A DNA stretch of 63,485 nt, filler included, from Kipferlia bialata (Eukaryota), in NCBI GenBank assembly GCA_003568945.1. It is 7 parts of 7 records of this genome, joined end to end, with 100 filler letters (N's around TTAATTAATTAA, not from the genome) between each part and the next. Parts side by side here need not be neighbours in the genome. Positions count along the whole stretch, not along the records: positions 12,623 to 25,131 come from BDIP01001075.1; 6 more parts are not named here. One strand, given 5' to 3'. Numbering within the stretch: position 1 is the first letter of the stretch; every line of letters starts with the position of its first letter. The position numbers and the translations under genes are program-made. The notes below the pieces were generated by a model. The model saw only the letters and a program-made list of their open reading frames with translations. It was not told the DNA's origin and did not search any database. Of this stretch, positions 1 through 60,200 are shown piece after piece.

Positions 1-51
<51 letters not shown>

Positions 52-55
52 CTAC

Positions 56-12200: not shown

Positions 12201-12296
12201 CCCTCAGTGCCCCGTGCAGAGAGGGAGCAGAACCTTGACAAGGCCATGGCACTGCTACAGAGAGCCATCGATGGTTTGACTCAAGCTATACTCTAA
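9220..12296 (+). CDS. Atypical Ser/Thr protein kinase, CK1-like C-lobe, with a long unknown C-terminal region; final exon 9978-12296
   Basis: LYTLHRSGIVHNDIHRGNII (catalytic loop), FLDFEAA (DFG equivalent), GVLTYASRDTHAG...KDLEALVYSF...LPW (CK1-type GT.RYAS...DDLESLGY...LPW). Acceptor cttaccccag at 9977. The 5' exons from 9220 are uncertain. Confidence 0.75.
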
Positions 12297-12673: not shown

Positions 12674-12715
12674 CTAACCCCTCTCTCTCTCTATACATAT
12701 ACTCCTAACCTCTAG

Positions 12716-15700
12716 GTCCTGATGATGGCTGGCCTTGAGAACAAGCCCGTTGTGTTCCTGTTCAGCGACACCCAGCTGGTGATGCCCTCCATGCTTGAGG
12801 ACATATCAACCATTCTGAACACAGGTCAGTTATATATATATACACATGGATATATATATGGATGGATCACATATATGTGATTCAGCTGGTCATGCCATCG
12901 ATGCTCGAGGACATATCAACCATTTTGAACACCGGTTAGTTAGTAGAGCTAGGCATCTCTGTCTCTCTATGTTTCTTCTCTCTCTTTCTCCCTCCCTCCC
13001 TCTGTCTCTCTCTCTCTCTACACCCTTAATCACAGGTGATATCCCCAACCTCTATGCCTCTGAGGAGCTTGACCAGATTTACACTGCCATGAGAGGTGTC
13101 TGTCAGGAGAAGGGTCTAGCAACAAACAAGATGGTCAGGTATAACGGTCTTTGTGCTAAGTGTTCTATTGCATTGACATGTTAAGGTTAATCTAACCACG
13201 TAGGTTCCAGCAGTACCTGCTCCGTATCTCCCAGAACCTGCACGTGGTGCTGGCCATGTCCCCCATGGGAGGTAGGATTGTATATTAATGAGATATATAT
13301 ATATATATACTCCCATCTGAGACATGTATGTAGTCATTCCGTTTTCTATATATGTGTGTGTGAGTTTATGTGTCTTGCCCTCACCCTCAGGTGCCTTCAG
13401 GGAGAGACTGAGGCTGTTCCCCTCCCTTGTCAACTGCTGCACACTCATCTGGTTCACAGCTTGGTCCAGGTATATATATGTATATATATATATATATATA
13501 TCATGTGAAAATACCCGGCACCTATAGAAGGCCCTCTTCTCTCTACCCCCCACCCCCCACCTTCTCTCTATATATATGTATGTATACCCTCACCCCCCAG
13601 GGAGGCTCTCTTCACCGTTGCCATGGAGGCCCTCCTTGACACCGATCTGCCCAATGTCAAGAAGGACAGCCCAGAGCACAGGGCCATCTGCGAGCAGGTA
13701 ATTACATGTGTATATACAGTGTATTAATATATACTATACAATGTATGTGTATATGTCAAGAAGGACAGTCCAGAGCACAGGGCCATCTGTGAGTTGGTAC
13801 TCTTGATTGCACTCATACGACTCTCGTATGCACTGTTCTCACCCCCAGGTTGCCGAGATGTGCGTGTACCTCCACCAGTCCGTGGAGAAGATGAGCGAGA
13901 AGTTCCAGGTACAAGGGTCTTATCCCTCTCTCTCTCTCTCTGTCTGTTTCTCTTGCTAGCCCCTTTAACAACAGGATGAGCTGCAGCGCTCCAACCACGT
14001 CACCCCCACCTCCTACCTCGAGCTCATCAATGCCTTCAAGAAGCTGCTGGTGAGTATCAGATAGATGCTACACTAAAACTAAGTGTTCATGTACTCTCTT
14101 CTCCTCTGTTCTTCACCTTCTTTTCATCCCTGCTACCCCCTTATTCTAGGCCAAGCAGCAGCTGAGCGTAGTTACCAACAAGAGGAGGTTCCAAGTGGGT
14201 CTCGAGAAGCTGGTGTCAACAGCTGTCATGGTACGCAAGTATCTCTCTCTCTCTCCCTCTACCCCCCTTTTCTCACCCTAGGTCGAGGAGATGGGCGTGG
14301 CTCTGGTCGAGCTGAAGCCTCACCTGATCGAGACATCCAAGCAGGTGGGTGGCAACTATATATACAATTTCATATGTTCAATTTCACTAGGATTATATTC
14401 TCTTACATCCCTCTTCCTACACCCTTTACTCACCCCCAGGTTGAGGAGTCCATGGTGCAGATTGCAGCAGACACCAAGGTGAGTGTAGATAGAGTCAGAA
14501 TCGAGATGGAGTGTTGTATGTCATTCATACACATATCTTCTATGTTTACAAATACCTAGGACGCCGATGCCACCCGTGCCATAGTTCTCTCTCTCTCTTT
14601 CTCTCGATATTATATTTGTATACACACATATAAAGTAGACTGATACCTAGGACGCCGATGCCACCCGTGCCATCGTTGAGGTCGAGGAGGCAGCAGCATC
14701 AACCAAGGCACAGGAGTGCCAGGCAATTGCAGGTATCGACATCAACTATACATATATGTATATGTCGGTAAATTCATAACGCTACTATGGTTAAAGTGTC
14801 AACCAAGGCCCAGGAGTGCCAGGCAATTGCAGGTACAGTGATAAATACACATATATAATAATAGTAGTGTATTGTATTTTGTTCTCACCCTCCAGAGGAT
14901 GCCGAGCGTGACCTTGCCGAGGCCCTCCCCGCCCTTGCCTCAGCTGTGGCATCACTCAAGCAGCTCAATGTGACAGATCTGACTGAGATGGCTAGGTAAT
15001 TGTTGTATTCATATACACACATCTATGTCAATATAGAGGGAGAGAGAGTAGCTCAATGTGACAGCTCTGACTGAGATGGCTAGGTATATATTGATGTGCA
15101 TATATATATAGAGTGAGAGAGAGACCTCACAGAGATGGCTACTTCTGTGGTGCATGACTTACCCGCAGGTACATCTCCCCTCCCCTTGCTGTCAAGCAGG
15201 TCCTGGAGGCTGTGTGCGTCATGTTCCAGGTATGGGATAAGTATATATCCAAGTACCTATTAGACTGAAGCTATATATATACATTCTCTTCAACTAGTAT
15301 CTCACTATCATTGTTTGTCTCATGTTCCAGGTATGGGAAAAGTGTTGGAGATAATGTAGTTATATGTATCTTAGTGTACATGTATACATACAACCCCTCT
15401 TACCTGTAGATCAAGGCCAAGCGTGTCGAGGATAAGGACAGGCCTGGCAAGCACGTCGAGGACTACTGGGAGCCAGCCAGGAAGATGCTCGGTACGTTAT
15501 TGCTCTCTCTCTCTATAAATACATATATATGTGTATGTATATATATATGCATACCTTACCCCAGGCGACCCCCGTGGTCTCCTTAACAACCTGTTCAAGT
15601 ATGACAAGGACCACATCAAGGAGTCAATCATCACAAAGGTACGAGGCCCCACTGTATATCTAAATATCTATGCATTTATACTGATCCAATAGCAATACTT

Positions 15701-15860
15701 CTAACTCCCCAGATCCAGAAGTACATCAACGACCCCGAGTTCAAGCCCGAGATCATTGCCAAGAAGAGTGTGGCTGCCACCTCACTCTGTATGTGGGTAC
15801 GTGCATGTGTATCTCTATTTTCATTTGAATATATATGTACCTTTGAACCAAAGTCAGTGT

Positions 15861-15909
<49 letters not shown>

Positions 15910-18900
15910 GCCAGGTCCGTGCCATGAACCTCTACCACCACGTGGCCAAGAACGTGGAGCCTAAGAGACAGAAGTACGTAGTTTTACTATAATCTCCATC
16001 TCCCTATTTCTCTTATAGTTGTATGTGTAGATATATGTATATATACAATACTCAACCCAGGCTTGCTGCTGCCCAGGCCGAGCTTGCTGAGACCAAGGCA
16101 TCTCTCGATGAGAGCCAGGCACGTTACACTCCTCTCTCTTTCTCTCTCTCTCTCTCTTATGTTCCACCCTTATCTTGACTTACACCAGGCCCAGCTTAAG
16201 GAGGTCGAGGACAAGATTGCCACCCTGCAGGCTGGGTTTGAGGAGCAGACCCAGAAGAAGCAGGATCTGGCCACCCAGGTATGTGTACATACTCACATTA
16301 GATATTGATACACCCAGATTATCAGATTATATATACGTACTGACGTTTAGATTAATATTGATAAACACATCATTATGTCTGCGTCTCTCTTTCATCACTC
16401 ACCATCCAGGTTGCAGATACCGAGACCAGGCTGGACAGGGCCAACAGGTAATATACATTTCGTATTTATGTGCACATTCATTATATATAGAGTATATATA
16501 TAGAGTACTATAGTATTTGTATCCGTACCTTCTAGTGTGTAATAAATATATAATAATATACATCTAACCCCCTAGGCTGATGGGCGCCCTTGGCTCTGAG
16601 CGCACCAGGTGGGAGGAGTCTGTGGCCAGGCTGATAGAGGAGGAGAAGAACCTGGTCGGAGACATTGTCTTTGCAACAGGTGAGAATATAGGAGTCTGAT
16701 TGGATAGATTGCTTCTCCTCCTTATATGTGTCTCTCTCTCTTTCTCCTTCTACACCCTTTTACCCCAGGTGCCATTGCCTACCAGGGTGCCTTCACCGCC
16801 GACTACCGCACTGCCCTGAACACCATGTGGCAGGAGAAGCTTGGGGAGATTGGCCTGCCCCACTCCATCTACGAGGGGGGACTCAGTGTCAACAAGTGAG
16901 TGGATATAGTGTGGTATATATGATATATATACATGTGTATATACTCATCTCAGGATCCTTGCCGACCCTGTGCAGGAGAGAGAGTGGATCCTGAACGGTC
17001 TGCCCTCTGACAACCACTCTATTGAGAACGGAGTGTTCCTCCAGAACTCATCAAGATGGCCACTCATGATTGATCCTCAGGTACTTTTGATAGTATTGTT
17101 ACTGATGTTGCGCTCACATAGCGCTGCATGTATCCACATATAGCGCTATGTCTCTCTCACCCCAGGGCCAGGCCAACAAGTGGGTCAAGCACACGGAGAG
17201 AGAGAACAACCTCGATGTGGTCAAGCTGACTGATGATGACTTCCTCAGGACACTCGAGAACGATATCAGGTATAGCTATATATATATATGTGTATAAGTA
17301 TTACATAGCATGTGTATTATACATCCATTGTATTCTATTGACACTAGGTTCGGTAAGCCCGTCCTGATTGAGAATGTGCAGACCGAGCTGGACCCTGCCC
17401 TGGAGCCCATCCTGCTCAAGCAGACATTCAAGCAGGTGCTCTCTCTCTCTCTCTCTCTCTCTCCCCCTCTACACCCTTTATTCACTGCAGGGTGCCTCTG
17501 TTGTCATCAGACTCGGAGACCAGGTCATCCCCTACAACTCCAGCTTCAGGCTGTACCTCACCACCAAGCTGCCCAACCCGTCCTACAGCCCAGAGACTGC
17601 AGTCAAGGTATTCTATGGTGTACTCTCATACACTCTATCTTGATCCCCTTGTCCCTTCTCACTGTCAGGTGCAGCTTCTGAACTTTGCCATCACCCCTGG
17701 TGGACTGGAGGACCAGCTGCTGGGTATGTATACTATAAGTGTCCGATACTAACTAAATCTCACAATCTCTTTTGTATGTAGTCTATATCCCACCCCCAGG
17801 CATTGTTGTGCAGAAGGAGAGGCCTGATCTGGAGGCCCAGAAGAACGAGATTGTGCAGAACAACGCTAGGATGAAGGTGTGTATATCACAACTCTCTCTC
17901 TCTCTCTCTCTCTCGTACTCTAGTCCCTTATTGTCAGGCCGAGCTGAAGGCTGTTGAGGACAAGATCCTGCAGCTGCTGTCCGAGTCTGAGGGAGACATC
18001 CTGGCCGATGAGACCCTCATCGACACACTCTCACAGTCCAAGACAACCAGTACAGACATTACAGCAGAGGGTATGTGTATATATATATATATACCGCCCC
18101 ATTACTTGCCTTCACTCTTTCTCCCTAACTATATGCAGATATATATATAAACGCATTTATGGCTCGCTCACCCCCAGTGGCCAAGGCCGAGGAGACTGAG
18201 AAGATGATCGATGTCACCAGATCAGGGTACAAGCCAGGTACGACTTTCTCTCTCTCTCTCTTCCTATCCACACAATATTGATTGTTGCCTTGTCCATGTC
18301 TCCTGTGGCAGTCTCTCCCTCCCCTCGATCTCCCCCTCTATCCCTCTTATCCCCAGTTGCCGTCCGTGCCTCATGTCTGTTCTTTGTTCTCAACGACATG
18401 CAGCTTGTGGACCCAATGTACCAGTACTCCCTGCAGTGGTTCATATCACTCTTCGGCCAGGTATCTTGCAGTATCTATTGTTTAGTTACACTTTCTTGTG
18501 ATGTCTTACTTATCCCAGTCCATATCCGATGCGCCAGAGTCCACCAAGCTGTCCGAGAGACTATACAACCTCAACGACTTCTTCACATACAACCTCTACA
18601 CCACCGTGTGCAGGTATGTAAAACATACATATATATATATTGTAAAGGAATTTTTGATCGACCTTGTTGATTTGTGTCTGTTCTGATGTCCAGGTCTCTG
18701 TTTGAGCAGCACAAGCTCCTCTTTGCTCTGCTCCTGGCACTCAGGATCAGACAGAGGGCAGGTATGACATATGTTGATGTCAATGTATATATGTATTTAT
18801 ATTAATTTATGTTCTTGTACTCTACTTACCCTCCCTTACCTCTCCAGGCAACCTCGACGCTGCTCTGTACAGGTTCCTCCTGGTGGGATCCACATCCTCG

Positions 18901-20652
18901 TCGCCCAGGTACATATACTGCATGTACTTAGTTCACTATACATCTTTCATAGTTATTGGCATGTGGTTATGTGTCATTGTAAATACAATTCTATGTGTTG
19001 CCGTCTCACTCCAGACTTCCCAAGCCAGCCACCGCCGCTGGATGGCTGTCTGACAAGATGTGGCTCGACATCAACGACCTGGACCAGCTAGGTATCTTTC
19101 TCTATGCTCACTCTCTCTCTCTCTCCCTCTCTATAACCCCAGGTGCCTTCAGAGGCATAGCCGCTTCCTTTGACTCTGTGGAGGGACTCACCATCTGGAG
19201 GTCATACTTTGACAGCAACGACCCGCACCTGCACGCTCTGCCAGAGGTATGTATTCTCTCTCTCTCTATGAATACATGTTCTTACAATGACCCATATGTA
19301 CTCTGTATATCCCTATATGTGCTCCGTATGTGTCTATATCTCACCCCCAGCCCTTCGAGTCCAGCCTCGACTCCTTCCAGAGGCTGCTGCCACTCAGGTG
19401 AGGAGATAGCATGTATCTCTCTCGTTCTCTCTCTCTATTTATGTATGTATATGTGCGTGTGTGTGTGTACACATATACTCCTCACCCCCAGGTGCCTCAG
19501 ACCAGACAAGGTTGAGGACTACGTCATAGTTCTCTCTCTCTATGTCTTTCTCTCTATATATATATAGATGTGTGTGTGTGTACTTATGGATATTGTTCAC
19601 CCCAGGTGTCTGAGGCCCGACAAGGTCGAGGACTACGTCATTGAGTTTGTCACCAAGGACCTCGACGCACGTTTCGTTGAGCCACCCACATTCGATATGG
19701 CACTCTCCTACCGGTACGGTCTATCTCTCTCTATATTTCAATATCTCAATTTCCCCCAGTGACTCTAACTTTCTCTGTTAGTTATAGTTTGCATATCTGA
19801 CTTCCAGCGACTCTAACAACGTCACCCCTCTTGTGTTCGTCCTTAGCTCCGGTGCCGATCCAGCATCTGCCCTTGTGAAGTTCGCCCAGGTACATACTGC
19901 ATACATATTCTTTCGTGTAGAATCGTTATCGCGAAACTTAACCTTCAGGACAGCAGAATGGGCTCCAAGCTGTTCTCCATCTCTCTTGGACAGGGACAGG
20001 GAGGCCCTGCCACCAAGATGATCCAGGTACTGCCGCCTGTCTCTCTCTCTCTCTTCAATGACGCGTACTGGACTGCATACATTTCATGTATATGCAAATA
20101 TTACTATTATTATTATTATGTATATCTTACCCCTTAGGACGGTGCTGAGCACGGACACTGGGTGCTGCTCCAGAACTGTCACCTGGCTCTGTCCTGGATG
20201 TCAGGTACAGTCTCTCCCTCCCCCCACCCCTTCGACCCCTCACTATCCCATGCTACAACCCTATTTACACATTATGCCATTATATATTCATACTCACCCC
20301 TAGAGTTGGAGCGCCTGGTTGAGAACCTCCAGGGTGACCCATCCTCGGTGCACAGGGACTTCAGGTACTGTAGTATATATATGTATATTAGTACATATTC
20401 ACAAGCACTTCAGATACTATTACTCTCGCTTTCCTCTCTCCACTTGTGTACATATTGTTCCCACCCCCCAGGCTGTGGCTCACCTCGATGCCCTCCCCCA
20501 AGTTCCCAGTCTCAGTCCTCCAGGTACTATCTCTCTCTATCTCTCTATATCTGTATGTATATTAGTAGTTCTTGCGGTCCTATACATACCCATCCTAACC
20601 CCCTAGAACAGTGTCAAGATGACCAACCCTCTCTCTCTCTCTCTCTCTCTCT

Positions 20653-20692
<40 letters not shown>

Positions 20693-22678
20693 TCTAACCC
20701 CCTAGAACAGTGTCAAGATGACCAACGAGCCCCCCCGTGGACTCAGGGCCAACCTCATCAGAAGCTACAAGGTACAGCGATGTATATGTGTGTGTATATG
20801 TGTGGCTATATGATCTATTCTCTCTCTGCTATGCTCATCAGGAGCTACAAGGTATAGTGTCTCTATGACATACTATCCTCACTCCCTCTCTCTCTCTCCT
20901 GTTCTCACCCCTAGGGTTACGATGACCGGTTCCTCGACGAGACATGTGTCAAGCAGGTGGGATTTGTGTATACGATTGTATTGTGTGTCCTATATTCATA
21001 TATTACCAGCATTCTTTTTATTTCTCTCTTTATCTCTTCCCCTTCCCCCCTTCTCACTGTCAGACGGAGTACAAGAAGATCCTCTACGGTCTGTCTGTGT
21101 TCCATGCCATTGTGGTCGAGAGAAAGAGATACGGTGCACTGGGTACGGTGTAATGTTACTTCTCTGTCTTATTATGTCTGGTAATACTTCTTCTAATCTC
21201 TAACCTCAGGTTTCAACATCCCCTACGAGTTCACCACCGGTGACCTTGACGTTTGCATCAGGTATATATATATACACATTTGTTAATATTGTCTTTGGGA
21301 GGGTAGTGTCGCATAGATCAATGGTTTCATCAGCCTCTCATTAACCTCTCATTTTCTCTGCTCTTTTGTCATTAACGTCTCCTTAACCCCCCAGACAGCT
21401 CACCCTCCTGTTGGAGAAGTACGAGGAGATTCCATTCTCCGTCATCAGGTTCCTCGTAGGTAGGGGGAAAGGGTCCAGTAATTCAAAAGAGAATGGTGTA
21501 CTATTCTCTGTTGACATAGCATCGTGTGAATAGTATCTTTGATTATTCCAATGCCAGGCCAGATCAACTACTAATCTTATGATTCATCTATTCTGATATA
21601 AATGTATATATATATATATATGTAAATCACCATTCTAACGATCCAGGCCAGATCAACTACGGAGGCAGGGTGACCGATGACCACGACAGAGTGACCCTGC
21701 TCACCATCATCGATGACTATGTCAACGATGGGTGTCTGGAGGAGGGGTACTCCTTCACACCGGACAAGAGCATCCAGCAGCTGCCTGCCAACGACCAGAG
21801 GTATATACATCTATATCAATTGTTTACTATACATCTAACCCCCCCAGGTCCTACCTTGAGACCATCAAGCAGATGCCCATAAATATACTAGTTGTGTATG
21901 TATAATAATTAATACATATTTACATTTAATAGTCTAACCCCAGGTCCTACCTGGAGACCATCAAGCAGATGCCCATAAATATACTAGTTGTATATTATAT
22001 ATATATATATATACATCTAATAGTCTAACCGTCCAGGTCCTACCTTGAGACCATCAAGCAGATGCCCATGACACCCTCCCCAGAGGCATTTGGGTTCCAC
22101 CCCAACGCTGCCATTTCATCCAGGTATAGTGTATATATATACATACTTGAGTGTGCATATAGAGTATGTATACTCTGACTCCTAGGAATGCCGAGACCAC
22201 CCATGGTGTATATAGTATAGTGTATGTATACATCATACACATATTCAATATTGTATATAGTGTATATATACATCCTCTGACTCCTAGGAATGCCGAGACC
22301 ACCCAGCTCTCTCTCTCTCTCTCTCTCTCTCTCCCCCCCCCAGTAGTACAGTATGTATAGTACACATATTCATTGTCTATATACTCTAACCCCTAGGAAT
22401 GCAGAGACCACCCAGCTCTTCTCCATCCTGCTGTCCCTCCAGCCCAGACAGAGCTCTGGCGGTGGTATCTCAAGGTTAGTATGTCGGGCTCCTCTCTTTC
22501 TCTCTCTCTCTCCATATATAGGTATTGCCTTACCTTAGGGAGGACACCATCATGCAGACTGCCGAGTCTCTACTGGAGTCCCTACCTGAGCAGTACGACA
22601 TCCAGACAATCGAGGGGCAGTACCCCACAAAGTGAGTGGTACTATTGTTCTCTCTATTTCCCTCTCTATATATACATA

Positions 22679-22726
<48 letters not shown>

Positions 22727-24266
22727 TTAGCTACAAGGAGTCCATGAACACTGTGCTTGTGCAGGAGTGCATCAGATACAACAAGCTCCTCTCCGTCATC
22801 AGGGCCTCCTTGATCAACATCATCAAGGCCGTCAAGGGTATCGTCATCATGAGTGCTGAGCTCGAGCAGGTATGATAAGCATGTGTACTAATAGTCTATT
22901 ATTATGAATGCGTATATATACAGTGTTGAGGTGCAGTGATGTAGATTTTGGGCAGAAATTGTGGAGACTGTTTCTTGTACCCCACCCTTCCAACCCCTAG
23001 GTGTCTGACGCTCTGTTCAACAACACTGTGCCTGGTCTGTGGGCCAAGAGTGCATACCCATCCCTCAAGAGCCTGTCTACATGGTACGGCTAGTATATAC
23101 ATTCACCACTATTGTATATATATGTTTGCAACTATAGTATATACTCTAACCCTAGGTTCGTTGACCTCCGTGCCCGTTGTGACTTCATCACCCAGTGGGT
23201 CAGGGACGGACCCCCCAAGGTCTTCTGGATCAGCGGACTCTTCTTCCCACAGGTACATAGTCTCTCTCTCTCTACACTGTGTATTATGCCCCTTCCCTAC
23301 TCTCTCTCTCCCTTACTAACACCAGGCCTTCCTCACCGGTACCCTCCAGAACTTCGCCAGACGCCATGTCGTGCCCATCGACACAGTCTCCTTCTCCTTC
23401 CATGTATGTGGTTATGATGCTTATGATTCTTATGTTTCTATGTATGTGGTTTCTATAGCTCTCTAGATTCTTCAGTTCCAAGTTTTTAACTAAATTTACT
23501 TCAGGTCCTTGATGAGCAGTGTCTAGGTCCTAGTATAACTTCATTTATTACTATTGAGTTTCATAATATATTGACTTCAGGTCCTTGACGAGCATGGTCT
23601 AGAGGGAGAGCCAGATGCGGCACCTGTCGATGGATGCTATGTCAGGGGACTGTACATCGAGGGGTGCAGATGGGACTGGGACCACCACGTGCTGGCAGAC
23701 AGTAGACCTAAGGTATGTATACTATCGTATCTCTTCTGGTTTAACAACTCCTTGTGGACTACTTTAGTGTGTGTAATTGTATTACTGGTCATCCACACTA
23801 TATTCTCTCACTCTCTCTTTCTACGAATTCAATCCCTAACCATCAGGAGCTCTACACGGCCATGCCCATCATCCACCTGCTGCCAGAGGCCAACCACAAG
23901 CCACAGGTACCATTCTACACAAACAGTAAATTACTATATACATTACATGAATTATATAGGAATCCCTCTCCAGTGTGTTTGCATACTCTTACTCACCTCT
24001 CAGCCTGGCACCTACAGTTGCCCTGTGTACAGAACCCTGACCAGAGCCGGTACCCTATCCACAACAGGTTAGTGCATATGTATACATACAAAGATACTGC
24101 AAGTAACAGTCGCAACCTCATGAGTTTACGGTAGAATTATGATTTCTGCTCCCTCTCACCTCCAGGTCACTCCACCAACTTCATGCTCATGATCGACATT
24201 CCCTCCAGCCGCAAGCAGGCTGTGTGGGTCAAGTCGGGTGTGGCCATGTTCGCAGCACTCTCCTAA
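12716..24266 (+). CDS. DNAH1: Axonemal inner-arm dynein heavy chain, DNAH1-like: AAA4, stalk/MTBD, AAA5, AAA6 and C-terminus (5' partial, about 60 exons)
   Basis: Spliced peptides [134 protein letters not shown] and [24 protein letters not shown]...[11 protein letters not shown](24264-24266). The dynein call is secure; the DNAH1 subtype is from recalled similarity. Confidence 0.95.
21835..22425 (+). repeat. Two triplicated acceptor + exon-start units inside dynein introns
   Basis: cag|gtcctacct(t/g)gagaccatcaagcagatgccc occurs three times (about 21846, 21942, 22036). ctag|gaatgc(c/a)gagaccaccca occurs three times (about 22183, 22285, 22393). Confidence 0.95.
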
Positions 24267-28829: not shown

Positions 28830-29857
28830 GTATGTATACTATCTCCATATACTGGCACAGTCCTAGTCCCCGTCACTCGTCATCCCAATACATATGTACA
28901 CACTATACACGATATGTATCATACATATACATACATACCTAGTCCCCCCTTAGGTACATCACTTGTCATGCCCAGTGCCCTGGCACAGTATATATCGATA
29001 TATATATATATATATACCATCATATGTATACACTATACATGCAACGGTATATACCTAGTCCCTTCCCATCACATGTCATACCCAGTGCCCTGGCACAGTA
29101 TGTCTGGACCTGCTCGTGGAAGGACAGCAGCTCGGTCTGATAGTAAGCATCACACATCTATGTATATAACACATGTATAAACTAGTAAACTGTAATACAC
29201 GAGTCTGAAGGACAGCAGCTCGGTCTGGGGTCGAGAACACTCTCTGTCTCTATACTAATCTATCTATATATATATACACTATTTTACATTATATCATTAT
29301 ACTCCTTTGCCATGTGTATATATGCACTCATACATACATTCATGTATATCAGTAGGTATACATGATACACGTACCCTCGTCTCCTGTGCCATGTGTATGT
29401 ATGCACTCTGGGGGTTCTTGTCCAGAACACACCGGTACAGCACACTGAGGTGAGGGGAGAGGGGGGGGGGGGGTCCGTTGGGGTAGATGAACTACTGTAA
29501 TACATATAGATACATTGATACAAAATACGTGATACACTGGTTAAGTAATGACTCGATTATCCACCTAGCCACATTTGACAACCCTGTCAATGCCCCCCTG
29601 AGTGCCCATGGGTGTACTCTGCCTGTCCTGACACACACACTGGACAGGGTGGACACTAGGGTGGAGATCCTGGGGTTGGTATATATATATATATATATTG
29701 AGAGAGAGAGAGAGAGAGATAGAGAGAGAGACTGGACAGGGTGGACACTAGGGTCGAGATCCTAAGGTTGGTACCTATATATATATTGAGAGAGAGAGAG
29801 AGAGAGAGACAGACTGGACAGGGTGGACACTAGGGTGGAGATTCTAGGATAAGTATG

Positions 29858-29889
<32 letters not shown>

Positions 29890-32199
29890 TAGAAGTGACA
29901 CACAGGCTGGACAGAGTGCATACTCTGGTGGATTTCCTATTGTTAGTATATGTGTAGATACAGTGTCCAGCTTTGAATCAGTAAGGAATGGAGACGGTCA
30001 ATGCGACCACTACACCAACAGTTGGTAATTGCATAAAGGTGCCTCGAAGTATCCACCCGGACACCTAAAAGAATGCATAGCTATACACTACCCTATGTAC
30101 CTGAGTCCAAATGGCCCCTGTGCCACTGACCCCGACATAGAGGGGGCCTGGGGGTGAGGAAGACGACGTATATATACACATACATAGTAGCCACCATATG
30201 CATCTTCAATTCAATACTACGGATATTGAACACACATCCCCACCTGCCCCAGTGGACTGAGTGCCTTAGGCCATTTACTACCACATAAGTATATATATAT
30301 ATATATTTGTATATATACACCCATACCTGCCCCAGTGGACTGAGTGCCTTGGCCTGGAGGGCGGACAGGTGCTGCAGGGTCTGGGGTGGATGTTACACAG
30401 ATATACAGTAAAGAATACACACACACAAGTATATGCATATAGACACTATATACATATATATATCCATACCTCTGCACTCTCTGTGTGGAACAGGTATGCC
30501 AGTATCTCTCCACAAGTAGTACAGGCAGTGCACAGGATCTGAGGAGGGTGAGTGTTTGTGGTGCTATTGACACTATGTACACTGTACATTGCGAATACCA
30601 ATACATACCTCTGGGTCCTCGACTGCATCCACTGTCTCGACCAGTACATATACATATCTGATACACAAACATACATATCACTATATATATATATAGTACA
30701 GTACTCATATACCTCAGGGTCCTCGACTGCATCCACAGTCTGGGCCAGTATACGCACAACTGGAGGTGAGGCATGGGAGGGGGGTTGCACACAGATAGAG
30801 AAAACCCGTTCCCACATTGATATATGAACGCAGTATCAGTATCAGTAGTGTACCCTTTCTATACTCTCTGAAGATATGGAGGTCTATCTACAGCAGTATA
30901 TCACTCCACTCTATTATGAATAGTACTATACTCACACTCCCATACCTGCATCAATGAGAGCCGGGGCACTCCACTTCTCTGTGTCCTCATCCCCATGGAG
31001 GGACAGGGCCAGTCTACAGTGAGAGGGCAAATACATAGAGACTCTATGTGATAGAGAAGTAGTATATATAGTATAGAATAGTATATATACTGATACTGAG
31101 TCCTCATCCCCATGCAGAGACAGGGCTAGCCTGGGGTTAGCGGTATTTTCACTTCTATATATGTGTATGAATAGTATGTACAGGACCAAACCCGGCAGTC
31201 ACCACGCAGATACAGGGCCAGTCTACAGCGAGTCAGAGGGGAAGGTATACATACATAGGAGTGTACAGACATCAGTCACCAGCAAGAAGGCACAACTCAA
31301 GGCTATGACAGTATATCGCCAGTGGTTACACTACACTATATCCCCATACCTCTTTCTGAGCTGTATGTGTGACACCAGTGACCTAAGGACACATACACTG
31401 GGGGTAGGAGGAGAAGGGGGGGGGGTAGGAGGGTTGATACAGAGGACTGGCTACATTCCCAAACATGGTCAATGTACTCTCTTGAGACTCCTACACGTAC
31501 AAATCCGAGTGGTCCACCGACCCTTGCTGGTCAGTCCAGTGCGACCTGGGGGTGAGGTACGTACACGGGTGTGTATGTATATGTGTGTGTGTTTGGATGT
31601 ATATGAGATATATGAGATACTCCCTGGGTCTGTCCAGTGCGACCTGGGGGTGAAAAGAGAACATACAGATGTATGTATGTATGCATATGAGATACTCAAC
31701 AGTCTGTCGACTGTGCATAACGTCTAGATGTACCTCAGCGTTGTATCCCGCAACGGCAGGTATAAGTGAATTTATATGTATAATGATATGTATTATATGA
31801 TATGTATCAAACATTGTATGAGTGTATAGTGTGTCATCGATACCTGAGCACTGCGTCCTGCAATACATCAATATATAGATATAAAAATACATAATACACA
31901 CACATATATATACATATATATATATATATAATACATACACACCTCAGCACTGCGTCCTGCAATGCATCACACGAGACAAGCAGGGCATTGGCCTTGCCTG
32001 GCAGTTAGTGAATGTATACTCAGAATACATACTATGACTGTCATTAAAAGGATGGTGGGTGATAGGACAACAGGAGTGCGTTGCCTGTGGCAAGATGTGT
32101 GTGTATGTATATACTGGATACCCACTCACCAAACCGCACTGCCTGCTCTGTGGGCACTAGGTTGGAGGAGGGGGACTCAACAGGGGACAGGGCACGGGC
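28297..32199 (-). CDS. Multi-exon helical protein, weakly Exo70/CATCHR-like C-terminus (5' partial)
   Basis: Spliced ...ISTLVSTLSSVCVRTGRVHPWALRGALTGLSNVASVLYRCVLDK...TELLSFHEQVQTYCAR...GGWTLPPSSVCEGVHLRVALLPYVRCVCGSYWDQFSDACRYTPLDAESVAMLCQHIRKCTRHIGG-TAG. The gene is well supported; the Exo70 resemblance is a by-eye guess. Confidence 0.6.
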
Positions 32200-35600: not shown

Positions 35601-37744
35601 GTATCCCATCTTCTTTCTATTATGTGTGCAATATATACTGGCCAACCCCAGAGCCTTTTGCATGTGTATGTGACTATGCATGGACACAACTCTTATTCCC
35701 ATCCATATCTCCCATATTGTCTCTCTGTGTACGAATACCAACCCCAGGGCCTTTTCCTCTGATGCTTCTCTCCCTCTGCCTATATATTTGTATGTAGATC
35801 AAAAGTGTGTTGACACGTACTAGCAAAGTGTAGTCTAGTATGTTAACACCAGAGCCTTCTCGTCTGGCTTCGAGGCTGCCTGCGTGGTTGGGGACGGGGA
35901 GTTGGCCAGAAAGATGATGTACAACATACTGGCCTCGCAGGTACATATCACTAGAGTCATATATATATTATAGGATAGTTTTTAGTGGCATAATATATGT
36001 GGTATGTACAGGAAGATGATGTACAACATACTGGCGTCACAGGTACCCAGCAACACAGTTATGTAACATTGTATTACAAATGAAATGTATTCAGAATGAT
36101 ACTGTACAACTATATGTATCCACACTATAACAATGGTAGTTGACCAGGAAAGTGATGTACAATATGCTGACATCACAGGTTTATATACACTGTATCCAGT
36201 TATAAGATACCATAATCTACATGTTTTTGTATGGAAGTCTATAGTCTCCTGACCCCTAGATGCACACCGAGGGAGGTGGACTGCCACAGCACAAGACGAT
36301 GAAGGACTGGTGCATAAACCCAAGGTAATGTCGCAGTATAATTAGATAACTATATATATACTAATATATATACGAATTCATATATATACATCAATACTTC
36401 GATATATATGCGAGGCCCATGGACTCCCTGGTTTTTGAACGCAAGGTCAGTGTGGTGACTATATAGCGACAAATACCAAGGTAGTGTCTTTTGGTCTATG
36501 CCTTGTCTCACCCCAGCATCCACCCATCCACCCATGTTGCATCCTGTCCCATGAATATGTATGTATATATATATACTATACGTATATATATGTTCAGTTC
36601 CCTGCCTCACCCCCAGCATCCACCCTGTGGCCAGGGCGTTCGGAGTGGTGGTGGAGGCCAAGGTACTATATAATATATGCTATATATACTATATGCTATA
36701 TACTATATAATATATACTATACTGTATCTACTGCACTGTATTTCTGTGGTGGTGGAGGCCAAGGTACACAGTATATATTATATATTATACAATATACAAT
36801 ATGCTATATACAATATACGATATAATATATACTATACTGTATGTACTGCACTGTATGTCTGTGGTGGTGGAGGCCAAGGTACTATATACAATAGACTATA
36901 TACTATGTAGTATATAGTATATAGTATATAGTATATATAGTATATATAGTGTATACATAATATATAATTGGTGGAGGCCAAGGTGCAGTGTATTAGCTCT
37001 CCAAGAACTAATCTTCTATTTGATACTGGCAGACTGCCATTTCTTCTCGGTACTGCTTGCCATGTCCATAGAATCACTTTCATCCTTGTACTTATCCCCA
37101 TCCCCTGCTGCCTGTTATGGCCATCAGTGCGTGATAGTAATAATATGGAGATACTCTGTACATATATACCACTGTCTATATATCAAGTTCTCGTACCTCT
37201 GATAACCCCTAGCCCCTGCTGCCCGTCATGGCCTCTGTGCGTGATGGTGAGTGGGCATCGGTGGCCGAGGAGGTGGGACTTCCCATCATTTGGGGGGACA
37301 GGTACGAAGTAGATACTTATATAGAGCTAGAGTTAGAGCTATATTGCACACAATGGATTGTCTCGAAGAGGTACAGATCACTTAGAGTATTCCTTTAACT
37401 AGGTTTTTTACGTCTTTGTTGGGAATCTACGCTATATTTTTATACTGATCCGCAGGAGTGTTCTCAAGGAGCACGAGAGGGACAGGAGGGAGAGAGTGAG
37501 GCTGGAGGAAGAGGCCAGGAAGGCAGAGGCAGCAGCCAAGAACAAGGTGCCATAGTCACATTACATTCAATACTTTTATCGTATAAGTACTATGTATGTA
37601 TATAGCGTATACCTTAGTGGAAGATGGAACGTATGTAGAGGCTATTGTATTTCATTTACACCCTAGGAGAAGATGCTGGAAAAGAGGCGGAGGAAGCTGC
37701 AGAAGAGGAAGAACAACGCCAAGAGGAGGACAGCCAAGCAGTGA
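32652..37744 (+). CDS. SET-domain protein, SMYD/SET5-like, with post-SET cysteines and a basic coiled C-terminus (5' partial)
   Basis: GLCLYTHLPYLTHSCVPAVK / RVTAARDVK|AGEPLTRTYLIGAPSMTRAER|TEYLWEHYEFKCNCE|VCSLEGDALVQSDMNRMRL matches NHSC.PN, A.RDI..GEELT.SY and F.C.C..C. Ends KRRTAKQ-TGA at 37742-37744. Confidence 0.85.
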
Positions 37745-38246: not shown

Positions 38247-41200
38247 TTATAGAGAGGAGAGTATCCATGACACTACCTTATAGGCCGTGTGCATTGCATA
38301 TGCACCCAGGCACCCATAGCCTAGGTCGCTGAACATGACTCCCAGCCACACACCTGGGGTAAGTACATTGGTGTGTGGTCATAGACACCCAGTACGACAT
38401 ACCCACTCAGTGAACTCGTCATGGTAATGAATATGTATCAGTATCTGTGATATATAATTTAGAATGTGTACAATGTGTGTCGGAATGCACTCACCTGTCC
38501 AGTTGCCTGTCATTCCTATTAGTATCAGTGCTATCCGTAGTACACAACCTATCAGAGACAGGAAGGCACCTCGCTGGCCAACACCGGCCTGACATAAGTA
38601 TAACAATATACATATGGTAAAGAGATAGAGAATCGCACATGCTGGTGACCAAATGACAAACGAGATAGGAAACCAGATGTGGTAATACGGCAACGTACCG
38701 ATGCCAGCAGCTGTGTGCCGAAGCTCAACAGGACATACCCGGGTCTGGTGGGTGAGACAAGAACCCACATTGTGTATAAGATACTCGCGCATATATTGAC
38801 GTGACAGGTGATGTAGGTATGTTGCATTGTGGTCCTACCCACCTCATTGCATTGCCCACCCTGACTGCCGTGTTGATGTTGTCCAGGATGACGGAGTCGG
38901 AGCTGAAGAGGGAGACTGGGGGTTAGAGACACTGCAAAGCAAGACTTAGCTGCAAAATATATGGGTTGTCAGAGCTGTATAGGGACACATGGGGTGAGTA
39001 TCGGCGATATATAGATATATCTCGTATCAAAGAGATTCCTAATGCATACTTGGCATACGTATTTATTGTATATATGTACCGAATGTGTAAGGTACTGCCT
39101 CCACTAGAGGCACTAAGACATATACATCGATGTATACGTCATGGCATAGTAGGTGATTAGTGTATATAGAGCAGCAGCACATACCGAATGTGTATGGGAC
39201 TGCCTCCACCAGAGACCACAGGGGCACAAAGACAGCCAGAGCACCCAGGATGACATACTTGCCAGCCTGCTTGACTCTGTAGGTCAGATAAATAGTATAT
39301 ACACACCCATATATATGGTATGTAGAACTGCTTGAACTGTTTGAAAGTGACGACATAGAGGGACTGACATTGATGCACGACACATATTTTAGAGTCAACG
39401 CAGAAAGTCTACACAACTCACCTCTCGCTGTTGTTGGCATGGAAGGCTGCACCCAGAATAGGGACAGCAGCAGTGATGACACCTGGGGTCATGTGCCTAG
39501 ATAGAGAGAACATATAAGAATGAGATAGAGTATGTGAGAAATAGAGAGAGAGAGGTGTGATGACACCTGGGGGTTAGCCTGGTTAGAGAACGTTCCATTG
39601 ACAACACATATCGGAAGAGGAGAGAATAGGTGTATATACTGCTGTGATGACACCTGAGTGTGAGGACATGTCCCCTAGACAGAGAGAACATCAAAAGGAG
39701 ATAGAGAATGTACAAGAGTCCCCGATTAGAGATAAAGATATAGAGAACGAAAGAGAGAGATATAGAGCCGACCTGTGGACGGCAGCACCAGCATGGATGC
39801 CACCCTGTTGACCACCACTGCTATGGCTATGTGGGTGTCAGAGTCGACAGGGCCGTCCACATTGCCAATCACAACTGGGGTGAGGATGGATCAGTGCACC
39901 ACACACACTACGGGAGTATCTCTATCAGGTATTCGGTACCTATCAGCACCAGCATAGTGATCACCGTGGCCATGTTCATGACGTACAGACATACTATATT
40001 CATATTATAGACATATTGTATACATAGAAAATACCAGAAAATATATCAACGTTTTACCTATCAGCACCAGCATTGTGATCACCGTGGCCATTCCCATCAG
40101 GAGGGCAGGGCTGCCAGCCTTGGCTACGGCCTGGTGTCACAGGGGAGGGATATAAATATATATACGAATATATATGAACTTATACATGGTATTGGTCCAA
40201 TAGAGAGGGAAAGAAATTCACCTTGATCTGAGAGAACGACTGTCTGTTTGGCAGTCTCTTGGGTCTAGTGACCTGGATATCAGAGGGCTGACAGAGAGTC
40301 CTGACACAGAGAATACGTTGTAAACGCACAGACACAGCTGGCCACTTGAAATCATTGGGGTATGGTATTTACCAAGTACCTTGACGATGGGTATGACGCC
40401 TATGATTGATGCCAGAAGGAAGGTGAGACCGTAGGAGAGGGGAGGGCCCATAATGCCTGGGATGATAAGGGGATTGAGTGCAGAATATACATATATATTC
40501 ACATGTACATACATATATATAAACATTGATGGATATATATCATAGGAGAGGGCCCATGATGCCTGGGGGGGTAAGGGGATTGAGGGCAGTATATGCACAC
40601 ACATATATATATATATATATAGATACTGATAGATATACATCATAAGAGAGGGGAGGGCCCATGATGCCTGGGGTAAGGTGGAAGAGTAATTGGAAGGTAT
40701 AGTCACAGTGGGTCCGTAGTATATATGTATATCTCCATAGTTTACTTTGCTCCTATGAGATAGAGATTTTGAGTAACTATCTATACAGATACTTTCTCAG
40801 ACAAACCAGTAACAGAATCGATCCCAACCAGTAAGACTAACTCGTAGTGTACACACATAGACATATAGAGTGTACATACCCATGTCCAAGACAGGCCCTG
40901 CCACCCAGCAGAGTACTACCATCAGCATGGCAGAGACCACAGACACTAGTAGAGACAGGGCCTAACGTGAGTGTATATGTATCCACACTTTCAAAGAGAG
41001 TAGCAGATAGTTTGCTGAGTTGGATCTACCTGGTACCCCATCGATCTCAGCAGTGACGTGACCAGCGTGTAGCTGCCAAACCCTATGGGGCCAGCCAGAC
41101 AGAGGGTCATGGCATATGGGCGCATATCAGTACCACTTGATGTGAGAGAGTGATAACTAAGACCAACTGTTCAAATGCTAAGGGACCTGAATCATGTGGT

Positions 41201-54700: not shown

Positions 54701-57220
54701 GACACTGACCTGGCATGGCATGTGTATGGTTGACCATAGCGTCACTGAGGGTGGTCAGATAGGAGTCTGGGGTTAGACACTACATATGCACTAACATGAT
54801 AACACCTGTCCCTATTGGTAGTAGGACAGAAGTCAAGGGGTCACACAGCACATTCATACATACTATGATCCAAGATATATCCAACATTACCTAGTTCCCC
54901 CCATGCCTGTGTCTCGTGTCCCATTAGTAGTCTCAACTTGACCCCAGCCACACGGAGGTCAGGGCGGGAGACCTAGGCGTCACAAATATGAAACAGTATA
55001 TCTGAAAGGAAACATTGATGATAAATTCACAAGTTATTCAATAAGATGTATCCAGTAATCGACCATTACCCATCCGTACCTTTGGTGACTTGAGCCCCAT
55101 GGACTCGGACACCCTGGGGTGAGGGGACATTATGAAGTCATAATATACTATGCACTATATATACACATATATAGTGAAGTGATGCACTCGGACACCCTGG
55201 GGTGAGAACACTAGATACAGGCAGAATAATACAATACGACACACTGGACACTTGCTTTGTCAGTATGTCTATATTACTACACTAATCCCACCTAGTATGT
55301 CCTATCTGCAATAGGTATGGGGCAGGGAACGGTACAGACCCAGGGGCCCTCTCAGTGTATGACTCATAGAGAGAAGAGACCAGTCTAACAGTGCCCCTGC
55401 TGTACTGGCCCTGGGAGGCATGGGGTGAGTTAGAGATGTATAGGTATATGAAGTATACATCTAGATAGAAAATGGATACTGTATACACATTAATAAACAT
55501 ATGTACATATACCCCTGCTGTACTGGCCCTGAGAGGCATGGGGTTAGATGGAGATAGTATATGGATACCAATAAGGTATGTATGATCGTATGGCCAATCC
55601 TTGGATGGAAAGATTACTCTTATTGATACTGGCAACCAATCAGCACATCACAACATACCTTTGGTATCCCAGAGTACACACCGCCTGACAGCACAGTCAC
55701 ATGCAGCAGTCTGAAGCACTCCTGGGGGTGAGCGTTAATGATATAAGTATGAATATATATATATATATTTGCTGATGAGTATATAGCTTGTATATATCCA
55801 TTCACCTGATAGAGGTACATGGCACACTCCGCATTGCCTATCTGCATCGGTCTATAACTATATAGATATAGTATAGGTATATCTATATACATATACACCT
55901 ACCTGATAGAGGTACATGGCACACTCTGCACTAGCTATATACATGGGCGTATAACCATATAGTATAGATAGGTATATATATATATATATACCCCCACCTG
56001 ATACAAGTACATGGCACACTCTGCATTGCCAATCTGCATGAAGGTGTCTGCACAGTTGATGAGGGCAGTCATGGTGCCTGGGAGTTAGAATTGGTAGTTA
56101 GATATCGTTGTTCAGATAATGAACAGATGTAGAGGGGATATATGTACAGACAGAGTATCCGCACAGTTGATGAGGGCAGTCATGGTGCTTTGAGTTAGAC
56201 AGATTAGACAGATAGAGTAGAAATGGGAGAAACAAGGGGTGGGGGGGAGAGAGTCATTCATAGTTGCCAGGTGTGGTCCAGGCCCCATATCTATATCGAG
56301 GATATCACATACCTTTCCTTGTGTAGGACGTGGTCTCTGCCGTATTGGAACACCTGTGGGTGAGACAAATAAATAGGTGAAAGTCTGAAAGTATAACAGA
56401 GTATACAATACACATGAATTCAACAATCTAGTGGAGCAAAATTTACTGAGATATCCTGTGTTGTATAGAGCATACGCATACTGATACTGACCACTCCCGC
56501 TATTTATATATACACATATATCGTTGTATAGAGCATACCCACATCTGGTATATATATAACTCCAATCCTGAAGTCCTTGGGTGATGGATATAATACCAAG
56601 ATACTATATTAAGTATACCTCTGCTATACATGAATATTTGAGTACTCATATACATATAATGTCACTATACCTCAGGTCCATTGAGTACACTCATATACAT
56701 ATTCATATATAAATATATACCTCAGGTCCATCGAGTGGAAGTCCAGGGCCTGACCCAATACATACCTCATATTCCATGTATATACATGCAATATTCCATA
56801 TAGTATATATATATCACCATACCTCAGGTCCATCGAGTGGAAGTCCAGGGCCTGACTCAATACATACCTCATATTCCATGTATATATATGCAGTATTCCA
56901 TATAGTATATATACATCACTATACCTCAGGTCCATCGAGTGGAAGTCTAGGGCTCTAACAGCGTTGTCTCTATCCTGCCACAGCCTAGGTGAGTGGGGTG
57001 CACATTCGCATATATGTATACAATAGTGTATATATAGGTCCTGATACCGCATGACATTGCGAAAGTCTGGTACACTGAGTAGCATTAGTCATGCCTAAAC
57101 AAGTTCATATATACTCCTATACACATCCACAGGGTTTATACCAATATACCACACCTTGCAATGGCATTGAGACAGTCTGCAGCATTGTCGTATCGGTGCT
57201 GATCTAGAAACCCAACGACC
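45724..57220 (-). CDS. Very large hypothetical protein: many-exon helical N-terminal part, two long disordered S/T/P/Q-rich exons (about 48816-51531 and 47632-48732), and a short possibly LRR-like C-terminus
   Basis: In-frame joins ...GQQILR|RLNHLQPMGALLSLAAPVC...YEIRVNR|KDLPKLSFG... link the small upstream exons to the 981-aa ORF, and ...MQQE|PQQQPMAMSPPE links to the 380-aa ORF. C-terminal LSELVLHGV and ISHLSLRQC are LRR-like. The 5' end is uncertain. Confidence 0.6.
56669..56955 (-). repeat. Tandem 102-bp units, each an exon end + donor + intron piece
   Basis: acctcaggtccatcgagtggaagtc at 56719, 56821 and 56923 (period 102), plus a decayed copy at 56669. Confidence 0.95.
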
Positions 57221-57897: not shown

Positions 57898-59398
57898 ATG
57901 TACATGCTACGGCAGGAACCCGACTTGGTTCCATACACCTTGGTGGAACTGGGTAGAGTGGCTGGTGTCGCTACTAACCTAGGCAGGCCAGGAGAGACTG
58001 TCATCTACAGAGAGAGGGAGGGGGACCCAACAGCAGATGAGGAGGAGAGGGAGAGAGAGAGAGAGGAGGAGAGAGAGCGTGTCAGGGACTATAACCACTG
58101 CATCACAGTCAGTGATGAGCCTTGCCCCAGGTTTGTACATATGTAATGACAGTCTCTCTCACACGCACTCGCTCTCTTTGTCTAATATCCCTCTGAGTCA
58201 CGTACCTGTCTGTGCTGTAACCCCCCCCCCCCCACACACACACACCTTTGTGAATGGATACCTAGACCTGGCCTGTATCAACACTCTGTCTCTCTCTCCC
58301 TCTACTTCTGCCTGTGTGGGTGTCCAGTTTGTATATAGGATCAGTTTACTATTCCAGCTGCAGTTTACCCTGAGATTCACCCTTCTCTTACCCTCTCCCT
58401 CTCCCCCCCCTCTCCCCTACAGCTATTCATTCACCCCACTCCATCTCTCTCTGTAAACCTTCGGCCTATACATCTTTCTGTTCAACCAGAGAATCCCCCC
58501 CCCCCCTCTCTATATATATGTATACAACATGAAACACTAACCATTCCCTTACTCTTAGACCAGCTTTAGTAGACATGGAGGTCTGTCTCTTCCCCCCCCC
58601 CCCCCCTCTCCTCTGTATATATTGTGTGTACTAGAGCTGGAGCTTTTACAATTAACGTTGACACCCAACATTTCACTTTCTTCAATTCTCTGTCTCTCTC
58701 AATATATGTTACATAAAACACTATTGTCTCACTCCTAGACCAGCTACTGTTGATCTTGACATCCGTCTCTTTACTCACACTCCCTCAGACGGAGAGGGAG
58801 AGAGAGAGGAAGAGAGAGTGCTAGTGCCTATTGAGTTCAAAGCAGGTACTATTATATATGTATTACAAAAGAGTCAATAAGGCAGCTGTCTCTTCCACAC
58901 TACCTCTCTCTCTCTGTTAGTCTCTCACCCTCTAGACAGGGACACCCTCTCCCTGGATGGCATCAGTGTGACACAGACATACACTCTCTATACTTCACAT
59001 ATACCCTCTCTCTCTTTCATAGTCTTATCCATAGACAGGAACACCCTCTCCCTGGATGGCATCAGTGTCACACATATACACTCTCTTCTTCACATATACC
59101 CCCCTCTCTNNNNNNNNNNNNNNNNNNNNNNNNNNNNNNNNNNNNNNCATATACCCCCCTCTCTTTCATAGTCTTATCCCTAGACAGGGACACCCTCTCC
59201 CTGGATGGCATCAGTGTGTGTATGTACATCCACTCTCTTATTCACTCATACCCTCTCTCTCTTTCATAGTCTTATCCCTAGACAGGGACACCCTCTCCCT
59301 CGATGGCATCAGACTCAACCACGGGATGGCACTGCCTATCCTGGACGCAGGTAGATATGCACATACACATACTATTATATATGCATAGGAATTATGTT

Positions 59399-59429: not shown

Positions 59430-60200
59430 CATAATTACGGGATGGCGCTGCCTATATTGGTCGCAGGTAGATATACAAATTCACACACAAATACATGTAC
59501 TCATATCTGCTTGGCGGAGATCTACCTCCTCTCTTTACTCCCAAAGGATATGTATGCATTCACATTCTGATTCTTCTTATCCCAGGTCTCCCCGGTCTTA
59601 TGGAGGGAGAGAGGTGTCTCCTATACGGTGGCATGGAGAGTGTGCTGCCCAAGGCTGGTACGGTTCCAGCATTAAGGTAGATAGATAGATCTATGGGTAC
59701 ATTTGTATAGTGTATAGTGTATACATATATATGGGTGTGTATCTCCTGTATGGTGGCATGGAGAGTATTCTACCCAAGGCCGGTACAGTTCCTGCTCTGA
59801 GGTTGATATATACATATTCATGTAGGGTTCATACAGATATATTCTATTCATATTTTTATACTCTCCATTTCTCTTATCCTTATGACTATACGTGTATTGG
59901 CACAGAACACACCTATATGACACCAGATACCTCTTTACCCCTCACACCCTGCTCGCCCCCAAGGACAGACCCCCCCTCTCTCTTCCCATGTCTAACCCTT
60001 TAGGCACCTGTACCCTCTCCTTCACACCCTCTTGTCTGCCAAGGACAGACTCTGTACATTCATAGTACTGGATGTTACACTCTACAGGTATGTATCGCAG
60101 AGTTCCTACTGTTGCCTATCCCTTCACCTCTCCTACGATGCGTCATTGCACCCTTTAACCACCAGATGGACCCACATTGAGCACGACTACCCAAGCACAG
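57898..60200 (+). CDS. Multi-exon hypothetical protein, possibly kelch/beta-propeller-like (3' partial; 38-N gap at 59110-59147)
   Basis: MYMLRQEPDL... / DRDTLSLDGIRLNHGMALPILDA / GLPGLMEGERCLLYGGMESVLPK... / TFIVLDVTLYR|WTHIE has the kelch-like pattern H...LLYGG...LD....W. Confidence 0.5.

Follow-up and report, generated by a model that had tools for sequence, protein, structure and literature searches.

Intronic copies of exon edges in Kipferlia bialata and their excess of silent differences

Tandem duplicated mutually exclusive exons and silent-cassette conversion, for example of trypanosome VSG, are well-known systems, and introns are reportedly gained through tandem genomic or internal gene duplication (the Rogers model; Gao and Lynch 2009). 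In the majority of human minisatellites, mutation proceeds through interallelic events (PMC2599865), and the amphioxus 'mirages' have been described in Adh3, the globins BflGb6 and BflGb9, troponin C and PGBD5 (PMC3087553, PMC3902484). Here we describe copies of exon edges, termed echoes, within introns of the free-living metamonad Kipferlia bialata, a fornicate, using a window of 63,485 nucleotides (nt; filler included, assembly GCA_003568945.1) in which seven contigs are joined by filler, and of which contigs 2-7 were covered by the echo census. The published draft genome was assembled from short reads; it has 124,912 introns, its k-mers hint at diploidy, and the string 'duplicat' was not found in the main text of that paper (PMC5874029). 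An earlier note, with the dynein heavy chain gene of contig 2 as its test case, had regarded the pattern as undescribed. Its structure is that of the mirage as given in PMC3087553, whereas no account of the synonymous excess reported below was found in our literature searches.

Echoes of exon edges in dynein and other genes

The NCBI dynein heavy chain of Kipferlia bialata (P0001) matches positions 12716-24266 letter for letter with 58 introns. Addition of a missed exon at 16061-16118 gave a model of 60 exons, 59 introns and 1655 codons with one stop; its product contains six dynein domains in a Pfam search, and its shortest intron is 51 nt. The added exon is absent from the NCBI protein and is directly followed by a GC-AG intron (16119-16188). 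In 13 of the 59 dynein introns we found a copy, 13-60 nt long and about 100 nt off, of an exon edge with its splice site, in agreement with the dozen or more such introns noted earlier. The gene and its echoes are as follows:

12716..24266 (+): axonemal-type dynein heavy chain, 3' part (copy A); 60 exons, 59 GT/GC-AG introns
12883..12934 (+): donor echo of 12773-12824; 6 synonymous, 0 replacement
13753..13796 (+): donor echo of 13654-13697; AGC/AGT, TGC/TGT, and CAG/TTG at the edge
14560..14586 (+): acceptor echo of 14651-14677; ATC/ATA
14799..14832 (+): donor echo of 14699-14732; GCA/GCC
15047..15083 (+): donor echo of 14959-14995; of decayed type, one of its two replacement changes being a stop
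15122..15141 (+): second echo of exon end 14959-14995; no donor; 3 synonymous
15312..15330 (+): donor echo of 15211-15229
19492..19527 (+): acceptor echo of 19606-19641; 5 synonymous, 0 replacement; spliced contig reads outer exon letters
20607..20627 (+): acceptor echo, identical to 20706-20726
20834..20851 (+): donor echo of 20754-20771; AGA/AGG
21558..21571 (+): acceptor echo, identical to 21647-21660
21848..21976 (+): two tandem acceptor echoes of 22037-22069 with one common junction; 21848-21880 identical, 21944-21976 CTT/CTG
22186..22310 (+): two acceptor echoes of exon start 22397 (22186-22203, 22288-22310), each GCA/GCC
23505..23526 (+): acceptor echo of 23581-23602; 1 synonymous, 2 replacement

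A scan of dynein exons against introns (score at least 12) yielded 15 matches among 119 adjacent pairs versus 3 among 3481 non-adjacent ones. For contigs 3-7, frames were taken from a gene finder with echoes masked; unmasked, it took echoes for exons, and masking cured these miscalls. Eight exons there were set by hand from frame continuity and two boundaries were corrected. Self-comparison together with the masked gene models gave, after curation, a window total of 88 echoes at 67 exon edges, contigs 3-7 adding 72 to the 16 of dynein, so that the suspected recurrence beyond dynein is evident; an edge-anchored echo was detected at 63 of 344 modelled exon edges (about 18%). Six of 93 rows (32288, 36092, 48445, 48576, 54490, 57051) had been dropped as coding repeats or doubtful matches, and the pair 63295/63402 was excluded from the count on account of an ambiguous live exon. 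Cases in contigs 3-7 include:

29731..29936 (-): three acceptor echoes of exon 29565-29669; the farthest is the most diverged
31096..31222 (-): two acceptor echoes of exon 30946-31013
36009..36178 (+): two donor echoes of exon 35853-35940; near, 3 synonymous only; far, decayed
36746..36982 (+): three identical donor echoes of exon 36617-36662
39080..40667 (-): predicted membrane-protein gene with four echoes; 7 synonymous, 1 replacement
55806..56851 (-): six echoes around exons 55998-56077 and 56925-56984
58936..59214 (+): three acceptor echoes of exon 59282-59350, all CTG against exon CTC; assembly gap 59110-59147 within the array
59739..59801 (+): long donor echo of exon 59586-59676; many silent changes, one V/I change in the core
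62083..62454 (-): four donor echoes of exon 62523-62599 with a common inner junction; 3, 1, 6 and 7 synonymous and 0, 2, 0 and 0 replacement recodings

Donor copies lie 3' of their exon and acceptor copies 5' of it, as had been claimed, and 84 of 93 raw hits touch the exon edge that faces the echo; a search for copies of the opposite edge gave four hits, of which two copy small exons almost entirely and two are coding repeats of low complexity. The nearest echo is offset by a median of 102 nt (quartiles 90-113), and echo-bearing dynein introns are about double in length (median 180 versus 88 nt). Splice dinucleotides are kept in 81 of 83 echoes (GT 44/44, AG 37/39). Each echo bears a single splice site, unlike a mutually exclusive duplicated exon, and at the 13 dynein junctions we found no AG ahead of donor echoes and no GT behind acceptor echoes. 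From live splice site to echo, the spacer measures at least 38 nt in 63/63 cases and at least 50 nt in 60/63, a floor near the minimal intron length, whereas uniform breakpoints would leave 58% of spacers under 45 nt. This floor could be produced either by selection on splicing or by a duplication unit of nearly a whole intron. The exonic halves of the echoes are 91% identical to the exon. In contrast, 65 of 82 intronic flanks are no closer to their counterparts than unrelated introns are and the other 17 lie above the 95th percentile of unrelated introns, with a group shift of p 0.0097 (donor) and 3e-6 (acceptor). Given that most flanks are past recognition beside such well-preserved exonic halves, these introns are not slow to change.

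Some further copies are unusual in form. Two echoes (30609-30646, 60290-60307) span almost the whole of a small exon without its acceptor, and two echoes of exon end 29055-29108 (28861-28998) show indels near the donor, the farther one being much diverged. At 33750-33765 a 5-nt piece between acceptor-like and donor-like signals resembles the upstream exon end and is possibly a minimal echo or a micro-exon, and at the contig end (63295-63449) there are two near-identical 48-nt copies, each with a donor.

Splicing was assessed with contigs of a spliced run (X2) from the same sample as a short-read DNA run (X1, contigs and unitigs; no long reads); X2 is presumably RNA, its contigs skipping GT..AG introns. 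Across introns 1, 10, 11, 12 and 13 the offset between X2 contigs and the coding sequence without echoes stays constant, and past exon 36 these contigs carry the outer exon letters rather than those of echo 19492. The main transcript thus omits seven of the 16 dynein echoes and is joined at the outer splice sites on either side, which fits a shortest-exon choice resembling exon definition. X2 cover is absent in bins 12912-13017, 14502-14607, 15032-15137 and 15244-15349, which lie over echoes and were not counted as evidence, and echo 13753 is unbridged among the X2 pieces listed.

Silent differences in excess of decay

An automated tally over 15 dynein echoes gave 23 synonymous and 6 replacement differences (codon positions 5/2/22), matching an earlier hand count of about 23 against 4-6; inclusion by hand of echo 15122-15141, which scored 13 in the exon-intron scan, gives 26 and 6. 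All codon pairs listed earlier are present in the dynein echoes. The six differences of echo 12883-12934 are indeed all silent, and for echo 19492, likewise described as six of six, five of five within the alignment are, while the sixth (ATT/ATA) lies at the junction and was left uncounted. Taking one echo per edge, the ratio of synonymous to replacement differences is 22:6 in dynein, 71:46 in other genes and 93:52 overall. Exon 43969-44005 was counted in the gene-finder frame; an alternative frame would turn two differences silent.

A decaying copy is expected to show some silent excess because the live exon also gains silent changes. This corrected null predicts a ratio of replacement to synonymous rates (dN/dS) of 0.5 and a synonymous share of 0.35-0.45, as against 0.79 observed in dynein and 0.64 window-wide. 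Comparing echo with exon (a single echo for each edge, kappa 2, bootstrapped over echoes), we obtained a dN/dS of 0.068 for dynein (0.011-0.238, n=13), 0.207 for other genes (0.124-0.328, n=54) and 0.171 for all genes (0.102-0.266, n=67). The binomial p against the dead-copy null is 1e-6 to 1e-10 window-wide with one echo per edge, and 6e-3 to 7e-4 for dynein without its two strongest echoes. When decay was simulated with an identical detection step, the observed share was attained in 1/1800 dynein runs and 0/1800 window-wide runs. The signal is specific to the reading frame, with synonymous and replacement counts of 130/77 in frame versus 33/171 and 29/181 in shifted frames, and 9 of 33 echoes with at least three differences are purely synonymous where 1.0 would be expected. 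In 15 families with multiple echoes, shared variants are 17 synonymous to 2 replacement and private ones 24 to 22. Decay of the expected kind is seen in some echoes (15047 with a stop, 36135), suggesting that dead time adds a slight replacement load, which amounts to 0.02-0.045 per site. Even against the corrected null, the synonymous share of the differences is too high for a dead copy, bearing out the earlier view that protein-level selection figures in the history of the echoes. A dN/dS so far below decay suggests that most of the divergence accrued while both lineages coded. Cis conversion within arrays was rejected as the cause, since it gives a model dN/dS of 0.5 with two units, 0.35 with five and 0.29-0.5 over 2-8 units, above that observed.

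Origin of the exonic halves

A second dynein gene, copy B, is present in both runs at a likeness threshold of 80% (window 12703-15804). It is spliced, its spliced contig of 1669 nt equals that of copy A in length, and it is roughly 84% identical to copy A in the aligned pieces, with amino-acid changes at 12739-12745, 13232-13234 and 15743-15769; its contig depth is 428 in the DNA run and 80.8 in the spliced run. Its protein was not found in three length-limited protein searches, which does not imply absence. Copy B has A at 12787, G at 12790 and C at 12796, as does echo 12883-12934. These are the only exon-echo differences in that 10-nt stretch, and copy B sides with the echo in 3/3 (codon-frequency product 0.004, calculated after the fact). 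Adjoining them is the following stretch:

12746..12786 (+): 41 nt over which A and B are taken to be identical (unitig ends); likely a conversion tract beside the echo-matching sites

Echo 12883 reads as a duplicate of the A junction whose exonic half has B-type letters, and for its donor a paralogue is likelier than an allele. A second line of evidence comes from the array at 62083-62454, where copies with one inner junction show all four combinations of two silent markers, and the two copies nearest the exon contain a block of five silent changes including CTG/TTA. A single junction together with all marker combinations requires exchange after birth or repeat mutation.

Five things are established: the copies themselves, the intactness of their splice dinucleotides, their absence from the spliced contigs that bridge them, a dN/dS lying well under the dead-copy value, and one partial donor match. 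On these grounds we consider it probable that the exonic halves were templated by a different functional version of the gene, a diverged allele or sometimes a paralogue, through homology-directed repair, either at birth or by later conversion. A broken end would pair with a homologous template at the exon, where the versions are still alike, and rejoin about one intron length out of register. Survival would be limited to products in which one splice site alone is duplicated and the spacer reaches roughly 40-50 nt or more, because the spliceosome would then take the outer sites, which give the shortest exon. Unequal exchange would multiply the units and exonic halves would be overwritten from working exons, leaving in the echo silent differences built between functional lineages and a few replacements gained while it was dead. 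The prediction for the echo itself is that it goes untranslated, selection having acted on the templates. Fornicates are reported to be without NHEJ (non-homologous end joining) as well as Rad51A, and to have two Dmc1 paralogues (PMC8516963), and Dmc1 stabilises mismatched triplets (PMC6719624); loss of NHEJ and Rad51A combined with the mismatch tolerance of Dmc1 would make a homologous-template route plausible. The earlier suggestion that diverged alleles are captured at microsatellites thus survives in part: a functional homologue that has diverged is the favoured source and copy B is matched by one echo, but the donor is more likely paralogous and no microsatellite enrichment was found at the junctions (21/63 at dinucleotide runs against a baseline of 0.316, p 0.43).

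It should be noted that several points weigh against this explanation. A functional donor was matched for echo 12883 alone, and even there the echo has C and the exon G at 12781, a fourth site that falls within the stretch of A/B identity, where copy B is taken to have G, making the match 3/4; the letters of copy B at 12815 and 12823 lie outside the displayed comparison. The copy B piece stops 3 nt into the intron, so that the flank of the echo looks like that of A. For echo 19492, the stretch 19411-19600 was skipped as repeat and no B piece at 80% falls on exons 34-36, and it is counted neither way. No half-depth second allele is listed in 12700-15860 or 18915-19410 in the one sample, so that an allelic version needs past heterozygosity or a population diversity of about 0.2 per silent site; the proportion of synonymous differences (pS) between echo and exon is 0.20-0.25. 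The published figure of 6 duplicated genes among 75 complete BUSCO genes (PMC5874029) suggests that most genes are without a resident paralogue donor. Synonymous differences from exon to echo run GC-to-AT 49:29, not differing from the 23:10 of replacements (Fisher p 0.52); decay leans in this direction too, and exchange among equal alleles is expected to be more symmetric. The proposed mechanism does not itself account for the spacer floor, and the frames of contigs 3-7 are predicted rather than transcript-checked.

Among the alternatives, the one that fares best, though we regard it as improbable, is that echoes are plain tandem duplicates in cis which preserve older snapshots of the exon, the silent sites of the live exon evolving several times faster than the intronic copy through local mutation-rate asymmetry or shifting codon selection. 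The variants that every echo of a family has in common (11 synonymous, 2 replacement) and the agreement of copy B, as an outgroup, with the echo at three sites would fit this, but it requires an exon-to-echo rate ratio of about 5-15 while the adjoining flanks are mostly past recognition. The non-nested variants of the 62083-62454 array also speak against it, as does the fact that exon codons are not consistently preferred, the GC base being in the echo at 29 of 78 strong/weak differences.

Slightly less credible still is that echoes are sometimes expressed in place of the exon edge, by minor non-canonical splicing or stage-specific DNA pop-out between the direct repeats, and so are selected where they stand. 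The low dN/dS, the near-complete retention of splice dinucleotides and the intron-like spacers, never under 38 nt, are what it would lead one to expect, and it should be noted that contigs lose rare forms, so that minor use of echoes would escape the X2 contigs. However, these contigs pass five echo-bearing introns at constant offset and show exon letters past exon 36, the 13 dynein junctions are without the complementary AG or GT, several echoes contain stops or replacements (15047, 36135), and pop-out or cis conversion would give surviving echoes a dN/dS of 0.35-0.5. The non-canonical RNA or DNA joining considered in the earlier note accordingly finds no support, seven echoes being crossed with exon letters.

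Ordinary mirage decay, in which a dead copy beside a constrained exon suffices for the silent excess, is very unlikely: the structure matches mirages and echoes 15047, 32843 and 36135 are plainly decayed, but the counts, the bootstrap and simulation with transition bias up to 3-4 reject it. Least likely of all is an assembly artefact joining two haplotypes or paralogues in tandem, as the earlier note had also allowed, since, although the contigs are fragmented and microsatellite-rich, one array holds the assembly gap 59110-59147 and X1 is short-read and possibly the source of the window DNA, single X1 unitigs pass through exon, spacer and echo with 0 differing letters (12757-12971, 13512-14020, 14644-15860) at depths of 405, 396 and 440, similar to their neighbours, and the junctions are without the long repeat needed for a false join except at echo 14560, where unitigs break within the repeated stretch and a 120-nt piece of depth 440 covers the loop.

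Three other candidates were set aside: cDNA templating, as echoes run on into intron-like sequence and not the next exon; recursive splicing (AG|GT), as 3/7 dynein acceptor edges begin with GT by eye, about the share of ordinary exons; and whole-genome duplication or separately assembled haplotypes as a general source, in view of the few duplicated BUSCO genes.

Returning to copying from a working gene version, we tentatively raise a broader possibility, on which we lean slightly towards doubt. Introns may form a genome-wide archive of former alleles, in which Dmc1-only, mismatch-tolerant repair between homologues differing at about 0.2 of silent sites leaves and refreshes copies of exon edges. 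A now largely homozygous genome would then record a hyperdiverse, recombining or hybrid past, and its spliceosome would have to define exons while ignoring thousands of intact decoy sites in introns of 50-270 nt. If echoes do derive from other working gene versions, one genome would give estimates of past allelic diversity and of recombination between homologues or between paralogues in a lineage whose sex is hard to observe and which has lost NHEJ and Rad51A, and at about 18% of modelled edges it would store thousands of such records. Echoes also amount to a natural splicing experiment, in which short introns hold intact inner GT/AG that are ignored and no spacer below about 40 nt occurs. The reported spliceosome is reduced, with 87 of 174 proteins (PMC6679479), and the skipped inner sites make exon definition testable in such a protist. 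In practical terms, echoes mislead annotation.

Other features and comparison with known systems

Elsewhere in the window, contig 1 has an open frame of about 108-nt coding repeats at 2-1051 (-) with no Pfam match, and long intron-free open frames at 9933-12296 (+), with a weak kinase hit below the Pfam cut-off, and at 4027-5598 (+), with no hit. An intron-poor region at 47874-51532 (-), with long low-complexity frames and Gln/His-rich repeats, lies within an intron-dense contig. The predicted genes at 32652-37744 (+) and 38046-41286 (-) resemble, from the look of their unsearched translations, a SET-domain protein and a multi-pass membrane transporter.

As with mutually exclusive exons and VSG cassettes, a second coding-like version lies beside or behind the expressed one; the echoes differ in having one splice site, in being skipped in spliced contigs and in being mostly silently different, and hence offer no new protein. 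They share with duplication-driven intron gain small intragenic duplications that include splice signals, but no new intron arises and the existing one roughly doubles. The reshuffling of tandem units recalls the transfers between homologous chromosomes at human minisatellites (PMC2599865); however, half of each echo unit is a coding copy, transfers would import silent variants filtered elsewhere, and the echoes are known from contigs, not from single molecules.

The closest likeness is to the amphioxus mirages (PMC3087553, PMC3902484), which are described as intronic tandem copies of a 5' or 3' exon-intron boundary with splice signals, leave splicing undisturbed and occur as singles and arrays, in units of 60-160 bp; length polymorphism and somatic instability also count among their features. 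The structure is therefore already known; its density in a metamonad, a dN/dS far below decay, a paralogue match and a spacer floor were not found in our literature searches, the original Adh3 mirage paper and the alignment supplement of PMC3087553 being outside the comparison. No synonymous analysis of mirages is reported in the parts of PMC3087553 and PMC3902484 compared here. In the present case the host is a metamonad with copies at 63/344 exon edges, and the spacers are bounded below at about the minimal intron length. For the most part the intronic half can no longer be recognised, whereas BflGb6 units are given as 81-100% identical, and the exonic halves have a dN/dS of 0.07-0.2, one of them matching a second copy of the gene.

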